Shown here in pieces: positions 49,601 to 55,600 of a DNA stretch of 64,000 nucleotides. Source of the stretch: Amoebidium appalachense (taxonomy: Eukaryota > Protista > Ichthyosporea); assembly GCA_963693365.1 (NCBI GenBank), contig CAVNZM010000006.1, forward strand, positions 11,597,355-11,661,354. The letters are read 5' to 3'. Position 1 is the stretch's first letter; the number at the start of each line of letters is the position of its first letter. The position numbers and the translations under genes are program-made. The notes beneath the pieces are model-generated. The model did no database searches and was not told the origin of the DNA. It was given only the letters and a program-made list of their open reading frames with translations.

Positions 49601-52600
49601 GGGGCACACACGTACAGGAGAAACATGGAGGTAGGGGCACACACGTGTTGATGATGCATGGTAGTCCAAACACACATGGAGGCAGGCACACACGTGTTGA
49701 TGATGCAAGGTAGTCCAAACACACATGGAGGCAGGCACACACGTGTTGATGATGCATGGTAGTCCAAGCACACATGGAGGCAGGCACACACGTGTTGATG
49801 TGCATGGATGTGCAGACACACATGGAGGCAGGCACACACGTGTTGATGTGCATGGATGTGCAGACACACATGGAGGCAGGCACACACGTGTTGATGTGCA
49901 TGGATGTGCAGACACACATGGAGGCAGGCACACACGTGTTGATGTGCATGGATGTGCAGACACACATGGAGGCAGGCACACACGTGTTGATGTGCATGGA
50001 TGTGCAGACACACATGGAGGTAGGGGCACACACGTGTTGATGATGCATGGTAGTCCAAGCACACATGGAGGCAGGCACACACGTGTTGATGTGCATGGAT
50101 GTGCAGACACACATGGAGGCAGGCACACACGTGTTGATGTGCATGGATGTGCAGACACACATGCACTACGAGTAAGTGCGCCCTCACCCGGCCAGGCAAC
50201 CCCCAGCACCCACACTGACCCCTGACCCTGTCTGCAGGAGGTGAAACGCTGTTGGGCCGAGGGCCAGCTGCCGGCATGGCTGAAGGTGCTTATCGCCTCC
50301 CCTGGGGGGGACGGGGCGGGGCGGGGGGGGGGGGGGGGGGGGGGGAGGGGGGGGGCTAACAGGTGGTGCAGGATGACAACACATCAGGCGCCAGCGATAC
50401 TCAACCCCGCTCTGGTGGGTGTCCAGTGCCTGTGTGTGTGTGTGTGTGAGCGGTGTGGTGTGCGTTTGGTGTTCACAGAAAAAAAAAAAAACTGAACCCC
50501 CCCCCCCCCCCCCCCCCCCCCCCAAAAAAAAAAACAACACACACAGTGCGAGCATCAGTGGCATTGCAGTCCAAAGCGCCCCCACCACCTCCCCCCCCGG
50601 GGACTTCCAGGGGCCTACCCCCCCCCCCACCGCCACCAGGGGGGGGGGTGGTCAGGCGCCACCACCACCACCACCACCACCTCCCATGGGACGGGGTGGG
50701 CCCCCACCCCCTCCACCCCCGCCAGGTGGCCGAGGAGGCCCTCCACCCCCCCCCCCACCGCCACCCCCTGGCGCACGTGGGGGACCACCCCCCCCACCGC
50801 CACCACCCGGGGCTGGCCCGCCACCCCCCCGCCCCCGCCAGGTGGCCGGGGTGGTCCACCCCCACCGCCACCCCCACCTGGTGGTGCCCGAGGGCCGCCA
50901 CCCCCCCCAGGCCCACCGCCACCACCGGGTGCACGTGGCCCACCTGGTCCACCCCCACCCCCCGGGGCCCGTGGCCCACCACCACCACCCGGGCCCGGCC
51001 GAGGCCCAGCGGCACCTGGGTGCATGGCTGCTGGCCGGCCGCCACAGAAGCGAAAGATCGAGCCCAGAGACAAGATGCGCAACCTCAATGTGCGGGCCCC
51101 TGCATGCATGGGGGTAGGGGGGATGAGGGGGAGGTGCAGTCACTGAGGGTTGAGGGGGGTGCAGTGGGCCAAGCTGCCAGCACCCAAGATCAAGGGCACG
51201 GTGTGGGAGGGAGCAGACGATGAGGGCTATCTGCTGCGCATCAGTGAGGACAGGCTGGTGGGCCAGCTGAGGATGAAGGCCACGGTGGCTGGGCGCATGG
51301 ACATCTACTACTGCTGCACCTGGCAGAGGCCCCAGCTGCACTACAGCTCAGACACAGACAGTTGGCTGCAGGCCGACATGCGCCCCAGCGAGAAGCCCGG
51401 CTATGCAGCCCCCAGCTGGTGGGTGGCCACAATCAAGGCCCCAGCCGCCAGGCTCAAGTTCACAGACGGCAATGGCACGGTGCGCACAGGGGGATGGGGG
51501 GGGGGGGGGGGGGGGGGGGGGGGGGGCATGGGTGCTGACTGGGTATGGGGGGCAGTGGGACGACTGCCACGGCAGCATGTATGTGGTCGAGGGCAGCGGC
51601 ACTTATGCTATCAGGGACCAGACTATGGTGCCCCTCGGTACGCCAGGACATACGGGCACATGGGCACATGCATGCACACCTACATGATGTACACCACATG
51701 CACTCGACATGTCACCCAGCCACACGCATGCACGCCCACATACATACCCACATGCACACAAACACTCATACACACCCGGCCACGTGCAAATGGACACCCA
51801 CATTCATGGACACACAAAAGCATGCGGACAAAAATGTGTGCATGCCCTTACATGGATGCACACCCACATGCACCCCCACATGCACCCCCACATAGCATGA
51901 ATTCGCTTACTCGGGTATCGGTGGCCAATCAGCGATTGTTACGTCATTTTTAACCAAATAAGTCTATTCGGGAAATCAAGGTATTGATCTGATTGGTGTT
52001 TCCGTGAATTTGGGAGCTGGAGTTTCGGGTCGGATTGGTTCGGCTTGGTAGGAAACTTTTTCCTTCCGGCAGAAAGTTTTGCAAATCGCCGAATTTTATT
52101 TTAATACCTTGAGCAATCGGCAGAGACTTTGTTCACCCTGGAAAGCCGAGTGTACAGGGGTGCTACACTAATAGCGCGAGGGTCGATTCGCGAAGACTTG
52201 CGTAATTTCGTTTCGATCGGCAAATTCGGGTCGGGCTAGAAAGTGCGTTGAGCCTCAGGAATTTCGAGATTTTATAGAGAGGTGCATCCGACTGAATCCG
52301 TCTGAAGCTCAACGCACTTTCTGGCCCGACCCGAAATTGCCGATCGAAACGAAATTACGTAATCCGGTTTAAACCAATCAATAAGTCAATGACGTTATAT
52401 AAAAGACAAATTTGGCTACTTTTGAATTTCTATTAATTCAATCGGGTCACACCAATCAGAGTCGGCGAACAGCAAGCGAATTCATGCTCCCCCACATGCA
52501 CCGCCACATGCACACCCACCCAGCCACATGCATGCACACCCCGTGCTTCCCCCCCACCGTGCACAGCCACCTCCCTGGCCGTGCACATTATCTGACCACC

Positions 52601-55600
52601 CACTGAACTGCAGAGGCCCCGAAGGTGGTGATACTGCTGGATGCAAAGACGGCACAGAACATGGGTGCGTGCATGTGTGGGTGAGGGGGGTGGGGTATAA
52701 AGGTTAATAGTGCCGTGGTGATCGTGGGTGGAGGCTTGAAGGTGTTTGTGTGTGTGTGTGTCTGGGTCACCGAGAACTGTGTACCCGTGGGGCTTCAGGC
52801 AGAATAACTGATCAGTTAGGCCCAATTGTTGTGTGTTTGAGACGTGTGTGTGTGGTGGGGGGCTGACAGTTGGGCAGGGATCATGCTTGCCCGTGTGCCC
52901 TTGTCGTTTGGGGAGATACGGCGGGCGCTCCTGGACATGGACAGTGCCAAGATAGACGAGGGCATGGCCAAGAGCTTCCTGGACTACCTGCCCAGTGACG
53001 AGAATGTGCGTGCATGACCCCCACGTATGGGCAGACAGGCAGGCACACACATGCATGGCATGGGGCAGGCACACATTAGTGCATGCACACGTGAGGGCAT
53101 GCACACGTTAGCGCATGCACATATTAGCATGCACGCATGAGGCATGCACACATGCAGGCAGAGAGGACACACCTACACGTTGTTTCATGCACACATTTTT
53201 TGTTTAATAGGCAACCCATCATGGACGTCGAATCTATGCTCACCAGTTTGCATCTCGGCACCCGCAATCATTCATTGGACATTCACATGGCCACACCCGT
53301 ACAGACCTGCAACCTGATCCGCCCTCAACCCCTAGGCCATGCACCAAGATTCACACACACACACACTGACACACAGACGCCTGTGCCCACCTTGGTATAT
53401 GCACACACCGCCATCCGTGCACACGAACACTGACGTGCACCCACACCCACTGCCATGCGCACACACAGTGCCATGCACACCCACCCACTGCCATGCGCAC
53501 ACACAGTGCCATGCACACCCACCCACTGCCATGCACACCCACCCACTGCCATGCACACACACGCACTGCCAGGTGCGCGCGCACACACACACCGCGAACA
53601 CACGCATTTACCATGCACACACATACATACTGCCATGCACACACACACACACACACACACACACACACACACACACACACACACACACACACACACACAC
53701 ACACACACACACACACACACACACACACACACACACACACACACACACACACACACACACACACAAGCGCGTGCGCGCACACACACGCACACACACACTG
53801 CCATGCACACACACAGACACACAGACGCACACACACACACACACACACACACACACACACGCACACGCACACGCACACGCACACGCACACGCACACACAC
53901 ACGCACACGCACACGCACACACACACGCACACACACACACACACACACACATACACACACATACACACAAACACACAGACACACAGACACACACACACAC
54001 ACACACACACACACACACACACACACACACACACTGTGCAGGTGCGCAAGGTCAAGGAATACACCGGAGACCCGAAGCTGCTGGGCAAGCCCGAACAGTT
54101 CATCAGAGAGGTGCGTGGTGTGGGGTGGAGGGGGAAGGAGGCAGGTGTGTGTGTGTGTGTGTGTGTGTGTGTGTGTGTGTGTGTGTGTGTGTGTGTGTGT
54201 GTGTGTGTGTGTGTGTGTGTGTGTGTGTGTGTCTGTGTGTGTCTGTGTGTGTGTGTGTGTGTGTGTGTGTGTGTGTGTGTGTGTGTGTGTGTGTGTGTTA
54301 TGGGCGCTGAGCGCTGTGTTCCAGATGCTGGAGGTGCCCCGGTACGAAAAGAGACTCAAGGCGCTGTACTACAAGGCACGCTTCAAGGAGAGGATGGACG
54401 CCACAGAGCCCGTACGTGTGCCCATTGCTTGCACTGCCACTAGCCACACACATGATAGCAGGGTGCAAACAACACATGCTGTGCCTTGCATGCATGCTAA
54501 CCCCCCCTTAGGAGATACGGGCCGTGGCTGAGGGCAGCCGGCAGCTGCGGACCAGTGCTCGGTTTCGGCGGCTCCTTGAGCTGCTGCTGGCCTACGGCAA
54601 CTACTGCAACGGGGGCAAGCCACAGGGCCAGGCATTGGGCTTTAAGATAGACTCATTGGCAAAGGTAGGGCCCCATGTGTACCATGCACCACACCACGCT
54701 GGCTGTGCACACACTATGGGGTGGTAAGAGCAAGAATCCTGTTTTGACGACATAGGGATGTGAGCTGGATGTCAAAAATTTGCCTCAGGTTGATTGGCAG
54801 GGTTCAATGGCTGACATGCCGAACCAATCAAATCGAGTCCAAATTTTGGACATCCGGCTCACATTACCATTTCGTCAAAACACGATTCTTGCTCTGACCA
54901 CCCCATAGTAGTAACTGGCCATGCTGGCTGGGCACACACTGACTGGCCATGCTGGCTGGGCACACACTGACAATTAGTGCAGCTGCGGGACACCAAGACC
55001 ACCGGCGGCACGACCTTCCTCAACTTCCTTGTGGCTGAGATCAAGAGGGACTTCAAGGTGCGTGGGCGGGGGGGGGGGGAGGGTTGGCTGGTGCTGATTG
55101 GGTGGGCTCAGGATTTGGACGGGTGGTACGAGGACCTGGGTAGCCTGGACGACGCAAAGAAGGGTGTGTGTGTGTGTGTGTGTGTGTGTGTGTGTGTGTG
55201 TGTGTGTGTGTGTGTGTGTGTGTGTGTGTGTGTGTGTGTGTGTGTGTGTGTGTGTGTGTGTGTGTGTGTGTGTGTGCGTGCGTGCGTGCGTGCGTGCGTG
55301 CGTGCGTGCGTGCGTGCGTGGGGTGCGTGCGTGCGTGCGTGCGTGCGTGCGTGCGTGCGTGCGTGCGTGCGTGCGTGCGTGCGTGCGTGTGCGTGTGTGC
55401 GTGCGTGTGTGTGTGTGTGTGTGTGCGCGCGCGTGTGTGCGTACGTACGTGCGTGCGTGCCTGCGTGCCTCCGCGCCTGCGGGTGCGTGTGTGCGTGCTT
55501 GCGCGCACGTGTTTGGGCGTGCTTGCACATGTCTGTGTGTGTGTGTGCGTGCGTTGGTGCGTGCGTGCGTGCGTGCGTGTGTGCATGCGTGTGTGCGTGT

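Follow-up and report, generated by a model that had tools for sequence, protein, structure and literature searches.

A divergent CBM25-like module in the FH2 lasso-knob linker of a Diaphanous-type formin from Amoebidium appalachense

A stretch of 64,000 nucleotides from the ichthyosporean Amoebidium appalachense (GenBank assembly GCA_963693365.1, contig CAVNZM010000006.1, positions 11,597,355 to 11,661,354 of the forward strand; "the window" below) contains an intron-rich gene on the plus strand, with a start codon at 43608 and a tail extending past 59700, whose sequence identifies it as a Diaphanous-type formin predicted to nucleate and elongate actin filaments. A module resembling family 25 of the carbohydrate-binding modules (CBM25) is inserted in the FH2 domain of this formin between the lasso and the knob, and the gene is spliced and expressed with the module in frame. 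The initial annotation had counted about 85 extra residues at this place, and about 88 are measured for the module. A formin with a CBM25-like domain in the FH2 linker is a real, conserved and apparently undescribed architecture. As to its role, we tentatively prefer a reading in which the module serves chiefly as a folded appendage of the FH2 ring, either a spacer or a docking piece, and its sugar site, eroded in part, is predicted to bind glycogen only weakly. Publications are cited by their PMC numbers, for the portions of text that were available.

The FH2 part of the gene, joined by coordinates, gives a model of 14 exons (51039-56900) with 498 open codons and GT..AG borders. The lasso, including its two Trp residues and the subsequent helix, is located at 51039..51269, with an intron at 51090-51164, and is followed by the first 61 residues of the module (51297..51479), a 76-nt phase-0 intron within the module (51480..51555), the last 27 residues of the module (51556..51636), a 976-nt phase-1 intron (51638..52613) and the knob (52614..53005), which is made from exons 52614-52664 and 52878-53005. 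All four borders proposed in the initial annotation have GT..AG ends and keep the frame, and the junctions are also found in transcript data, which consist of contigs of two runs, X1 and X2, labelled "RNA?" and derived from one sample of one study; none of the runs containing the sequence is recorded as RNA. A single X2 contig (record 7, 902 nt) runs unbroken over 51039-51089, 51165-51478, 51555-51636, 52613-52663 and 52877-53010, and thus bridges lasso, module and knob. The same joins occur in X1 at a contig depth of 109-158 versus 5-7 for the intronic contigs beside the repeat in intron 3. The 51479/51556 join is seen as adjacent record positions in both runs and is absent from the joint table, which skips the poly-G intron as a repeat. 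No join skipping the module was found in the X1 and X2 contigs at 80% likeness and 1% share, contigs being able to lose rare forms.

Because the module begins inside the lasso exon and has the phase-0 intron within itself, no annotated splice pair removes it. A lone phase-1 GT at 51244, which is unused, could do so, but the lasso helix would be cut too. The proposal that the module with its own intron is part of the gene is borne out by contigs joining it to both neighbors. One could still argue that intronic or mobile sequence has been misread as coding or that the locus is mis-assembled, given the homopolymer frame errors nearby in the assembly and the origin of the RNA support from a single sample. 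This reading is already largely refuted and is extremely improbable: besides the bridging contigs, the G+C content at third codon positions of the module (0.84) is close to that of the rest of FH2 (0.81), and an independent species, Sphaeroforma arctica, carries the module.

For the identity of the module, 121 loci (124 motif matches) were fetched by a degenerate motif, 40 of them were scanned with Pfam, and two profiles of our own were prepared, one from 26 loci scoring more than 50 bits for Pfam CBM_25 and the other from 10 CBM53-like loci. The module scores 48.3 bits on the former (maximum of 1000 shuffles, 9.7) and 23.8 bits on the latter (maximum of 1000 shuffles, 7.4). When the selecting motif is removed, 24.9 bits are left on the CBM25 profile (shuffle maximum, 7.8) versus 1.9 bits on the CBM53-like profile. 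From the full and motif-free scores, the module is assigned as a divergent CBM25 relative, chance being excluded, in agreement with the CBM25-type pattern originally noticed. The C-terminal part of the module alone is marginal, with 11 of 1000 shuffles reaching its score. Identity to the best eight CBM25-like loci is 32-38%, and within the window this module alone scores on the CBM25 profile.

The first module exon matches the CBM25 of Bacillus halodurans (2c3v, E 0.021) in PDB, and also 2laa and 2lab from Paenibacillus polymyxa; a T-cell receptor gamma chain, ranked second among the PDB matches, was rejected as a chance match. An Atlas search with this exon gave a CBM_25 cluster as the top match (0.95). 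Pfam, queried with single exons only, returned no CBM_25 match (gathering cutoff, 27.3 bits) and a weak CBM53 match of 15.9 bits, below cutoff. Taken by itself, the second module exon matches nothing in PDB or Pfam; its assignment comes from our own profile and from the mapping of site residues. Word-index protein searches gave no matches, scans for related loci in genome contigs and metagenome contigs found nothing, and Rfam gave 0 matches. PF03423 was found in 0 of 14 control genomes, which is uninformative, and the four matches of a tblastn search against plasmids were all dismissed as chance.

Structural support is limited because only the first module exon was folded. A single-sequence model of this exon is all-beta with a predicted local distance difference test (pLDDT) value of 61, and the fold search listed for it generic immunoglobulin-like folds, with no CBM25 among the rows listed. 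A model guided by a CBM25 alignment, which is partly circular since it is built on CBM25 rows, reached a pLDDT of 81, and CBM25 structures occupied the top seven Foldseek rows (best E 0.054). The best superposition of the guided model is with 2c3v (Z 6.1, root mean square deviation 2.2, 61 aligned residues), and a pullulanase row ties with it.

In 2C3V, the sugar is contacted by Trp34, Trp74, His26, Asp81 and Asn76 (PMC4625611). With the register fixed, the window module keeps Trp20, His26 (51339-51341), Trp34 (51363-51365), and Trp74 and Asp75 (51556-51561). Other positions are changed. Position 76 is Asp, versus Asn in 64 of 65 CBM25-like loci, which had been preselected by a pattern permitting only Asp or Asn there; position 77 is Cys, versus Asn in 64 of 65; and position 81 (51577-51579) is Met, versus Asn or Asp in 62 of 64. 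Also missing is the Thr-x-x-Pro-Gly loop that follows Trp34 (Thr in 26/26, Pro and Gly in 25/26 members of the profile). The aromatic and His platform of CBM25 is retained and the polar contacts 76 and 81 are not, and glucan binding is predicted to be weak.

A search for orthologs in related taxa recovered the same insert at the identical FH2 site. An HMMER search of 1.84 billion representative proteins gave seven matches, the best of which (P0003) is S. arctica SARC_02793, whose existing annotation goes no further than a hypothetical or GBD/FH3 protein. P0003 is a GBD-FH3-FH1-FH2 formin ending inside FH2, with GBD and FH3 both above the Pfam cutoff, and shows 43% identity over 419 columns to the N-terminal half of our gene model; it is likely the ortholog of the window formin. 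Identities between the two are 31/88 in the module, 19/52 in the lasso and 36/101 in the knob, and the alignment score of the modules is 113.8 (maximum of 2000 shuffles, 6.5). The gene model of P0003 is a draft with an apparent retained intron in FH1 and a stop inside FH2.

In P0003, where the linker totals 204 residues, His26 is replaced by Tyr783, and Trp74 and Asp75 are absent whichever register is used; the CBM25 platform of Trp34, Trp74 and His26 is not found there. Low-complexity inserts of 72 and 21 residues lie within the site loops and, unlike the apparent retained intron in FH1, read like charged disordered protein. The residues common to both formin modules are located in the strands and in a Trp-Trp motif and not in the sugar loops. 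As the ortholog has the module but lacks His26, Trp74 and Asp75, the fold is probably old and kept, and the two species do not have the canonical sugar site in common. The CBM25 profile fails to detect the P0003 module, and such decay until profiles miss it would account for the lack of annotation of the S. arctica protein. When S. arctica cellularizes, the formation of filaments requires formins, SARC_02793 not being singled out (PMC6855841).

Since what the orthologs share is strand and Trp-Trp positions and not the canonical site, the appendage role is ranked first. The ancestor of both lineages would have acquired a CBM25 in the lasso-knob linker by one old insertion, and the FH2 dimer would carry two modules beside the growing barbed end, each held by ties of about nine residues on either side. 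There, the module may make the tether stiffer or serve as a docking site for a partner, and may thereby tune processivity or localisation. Its fold would be under selection in both species, and the canonical maltodextrin contacts survive partly, in A. appalachense only. Conservation of the module between the orthologs at an FH2-like rate supports such a role. Several points weigh against it: Trp20, His26, Trp34, Trp74 and Asp75 are kept in the window formin at 32-38% identity to bacterial CBM25s, and these exposed residues, dispensable in S. arctica, seem to be under selection for binding here; a single ortholog, with a draft gene model, underlies the comparison; and no partner protein is known.

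The five exposed site residues surviving at about 35% identity are why a tether or sensor for glycogen comes close behind. Here, the module would bind alpha-1,4-glucan and recruit active formin to glycogen or modulate FH2 stepping; two copies per dimer would give avidity, actin assembly would be linked to carbon stores, and the loss in S. arctica would be secondary. This is possible, and equally so is the evolutionary statement behind it, that a starch-binding module entered the FH2 tether in a lineage of holozoan formins and that A. appalachense uses it to polymerise actin on, or under control of, glycogen particles. The retained Trp34/Trp74 platform, His26 and Asp75, the partly circular Foldseek result and the approximately 50-fold higher affinity of tandem CBMs (PMC4625611) speak for it, but the changes of Asn76 to Asp, Asn77 to Cys and Asp81 to Met and the loss of the site in S. 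arctica weaken it. The initial annotation had proposed that actin nucleation could be tethered to, or regulated by, alpha-glucan such as glycogen granules or wall precursors; the changed and lost site residues weaken this proposal, and the link to wall precursors found no support, because FH2 would work in the cytosol, where glycogen would be the sole obvious reachable alpha-glucan. If glycogen is bound, there would be a direct physical link from a carbon store to an actin nucleator, and, in an organism that is likely related to animals, carbohydrate stores would be coupled to actin assembly.

It is also conceivable, and in our opinion unlikely, that the module is a trapped passenger, an insertion tolerated in a flexible linker that folds harmlessly, cannot be spliced out and has no function of its own. 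The lack of an annotated splice pair removing it and the large inserts accepted by the S. arctica module fit such a passenger, but a neutral domain should decay faster than FH2 or be deleted, and the rate of conservation of the module equals that of FH2.

For FH2 to step, its linker has to be short and flexible. In the window formin, 106 residues separate the end of the lasso helix from the knob Asp, and about 88 of them belong to the module. The same span occupies at most 50 columns in 136 unikont FH2 rows counted by eye (PMC5628938, S1 Text alignment 1), and longer linkers possibly occur in the other rows of that alignment file, the bikont ones included. The row most like the window formin by eye, the orphan Diaphanous-related formin CAOG_02378 of Capsaspora, has a 26-residue linker and no module, and the linker of Bni1 has about 17 residues (PMC3192862). 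Without the module, 18 residues are left in the window formin versus 26 in CAOG_02378 (by eye), and therefore the module seems to have replaced part of the tether. The available portions of PMC11773026 and PMC5969902 contain no mention of the FH2 linker. A folded domain in the FH2 tether of two species shows how much the tether tolerates, and the A. appalachense and S. arctica modules, one with the site kept and the other with the site lost, are a natural pair for studying linker mechanics.

CBM25, described initially as mainly known from bacterial amylases, is not only bacterial, since it also occurs in a GH13 and a GH31 protein of an oomycete (PMC4176579) and in a chytrid GH71. Among the other HMMER matches, P0004 and P0005 are GH31 proteins with CBM25 repeats, P0008 is a GH71 protein of the chytrid Chytriomyces with two N-terminal CBM25s, a noteworthy association with an alpha-1,3-glucanase family, and P0007 and P0009 are unnamed ENA fragments sharing the Trp-Trp motif. 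P0006 (Zopfochytrium, 4845 aa) was dropped because it has a short repeat match only and is not CBM25 by profile. As a separate observation, P0005 and P0010, which are unnamed or JGI metagenome records, are GH31 enzymes in which CBM25 is repeated six times.

A tree of 53 rows and 99 columns, omitting P0006, the near-copies P0004 and P0011-P0017, domains of 30 bits or less and 88 of the 124 motif loci, places the two formin modules and the two ENA fragments in one branch (99/96). The best single-domain scores belong to these fragments (38.9 and 35.1 bits) and to the chytrid GH71 CBM25 (38.7 bits), all above the best of the 124 bacterial motif loci (35.0 bits). Such scores could be taken as a sign of a eukaryote-leaning CBM25 offshoot with another ligand, such as alpha-1,3-glucan or a glycosylated protein. 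This seems improbable, as such glucans would be extracellular and FH2 cytosolic, and as the join of the formin branch to the chytrid domains is weak (84/57); because of the weak join, no donor is named.

The window formin shares its domain order (GBD-FH3-FH1-FH2-DAD), both lasso Trp residues, the knob Ile, the GNY core and, below the Pfam cutoff, a DAD-like motif with Diaphanous-related formins such as DAAM1 and mDia1, and differs from them by the 106-residue linker holding a folded domain. With the CBM25s of B. halodurans amylase G-6 (2C3V) and P. polymyxa beta/alpha-amylase (2LAA, 2LAB), the module shares the pattern, Trp34/Trp74, His26 and Asp75 and, by prediction, the beta-sandwich; unlike the bacterial CBM25s, it is presumably cytosolic, resides in a non-enzyme, is interrupted by an intron, and has Asn76, Asn77 and Asp81 changed. 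CBM25 would have been co-opted outside enzymes and have decayed until profiles miss it. AMPK beta and PP1 G subunits (CBM20/21/48/53 type) are earlier examples of cytosolic regulators directed to alpha-glucan by a CBM; AMPK beta and SSIII are described as non-hydrolase CBM proteins (PMC4625611), and the PP1 subunits appear in PDB titles. The CBM families of these glycogen- or starch-targeted proteins differ from CBM25 and are attached outside the working domain. Laforin is a further glycogen-targeted CBM protein, and to our knowledge no regulator targeted by CBM20/21/48/53 is an actin nucleator. In the full-text literature searched, which covers few subscription journals, no paper describes a formin whose FH2 linker contains a CBM or another folded domain, in line with the earlier statement that no such formin was known, and the available portions of two formin surveys (PMC2386819, PMC5628938) mention neither starch nor carbohydrate.

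The rest of the gene is consistent with a formin. Pfam FH2 reaches 55.6 bits (E 6.3e-15; cutoff 34.8) on one exon, and further exons also match. The knob corresponds to positions 88-128 of the Pfam FH2 profile and aligns with DAAM1, and the coiled coil and post, with a GNYCN core, extend over 54042..56756 in the open model, matching Pfam FH2, DAAM1, mDia1 and FMNL3. Regarding the key FH2 residues said to be retained, the knob Ile (52880-52882) aligns by eye with the conserved N-x-x-I column and with Ile971 of P0003. The Lys codon of DTKT is present at 54995-54997, and we take this Lys to be the actin-binding one; the DTKT exon as a query had no formin match.

Upstream, the N-terminal exons (43608..49566), identified by Pfam on single exons and by comparison of the joined model with P0003, begin with MGNSKS, which we take to be myristoylation-like, and contain GBD and FH3/DID. 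Drf_FH3 is above cutoff on a single exon (47.1 bits, E 3.4e-12), and Drf_GBD is below cutoff with a single 32-aa exon as the query (E 0.0055). The joined model of this half is provisional, with two non-canonical borders: for the frame to stay open, the donor at 43973 has to be other than GT and that at 47427 has to be GC, which may represent a GC-AG intron or an assembly slip. The reading frame of the FH1 polyproline region (50547..51038) shifts at long C/G homopolymer runs, probably by long-read homopolymer or assembly errors and not because the gene is broken. Transcript contigs mostly do not cover FH1; as a result, the connection of the N-terminal half to FH2 is shown by the ortholog and not by these contigs.

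Downstream, a long Pro/Ala-rich tail (56821-61400) contains a short stretch at about 58490-58525 that is presumably WH2-like, with no Pfam match there. It is followed, in the low-complexity sequence, by a DAD-like motif, MDxLIxxL (59662..59697; Pfam Drf_DAD E 0.093, below cutoff), resembling the DAD consensus MDxLLxxL (PMC4111664).

The introns of this organism carry GT microsatellites. The phase-1 intron after the module, which was delimited by spliced contigs and repeat analysis, harbors a repeat like a miniature inverted-repeat transposable element (51894-52488) with 18-nt terminal and 61-nt internal inverted repeats and an apparent 9-bp target-site duplication, and divergent copies of it occur in run X1. 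Elsewhere in the window, a 12.2-kb element (628-12824) is bounded by perfect 215-nt inverted repeats and carries, on the minus strand, open reading frames for a protein-primed-type DNA polymerase B (4917-9332), an Erv1/Alr protein (4285-4797) and an integrase/transposase-like protein (3116-4264), together with an identical internal direct repeat whose copies, at 9309 and 11401, are separated by 2092 bases; from its appearance, we assume it to be Polinton/Maverick-like. The remaining neighbors are an MFS-type transporter gene at 13283-17211 (Pfam MFS_1, E 7e-6) and, at about 26600-33000, what is presumably a gene for a LUC7-like splicing factor rich in arginine and serine (RS-rich).

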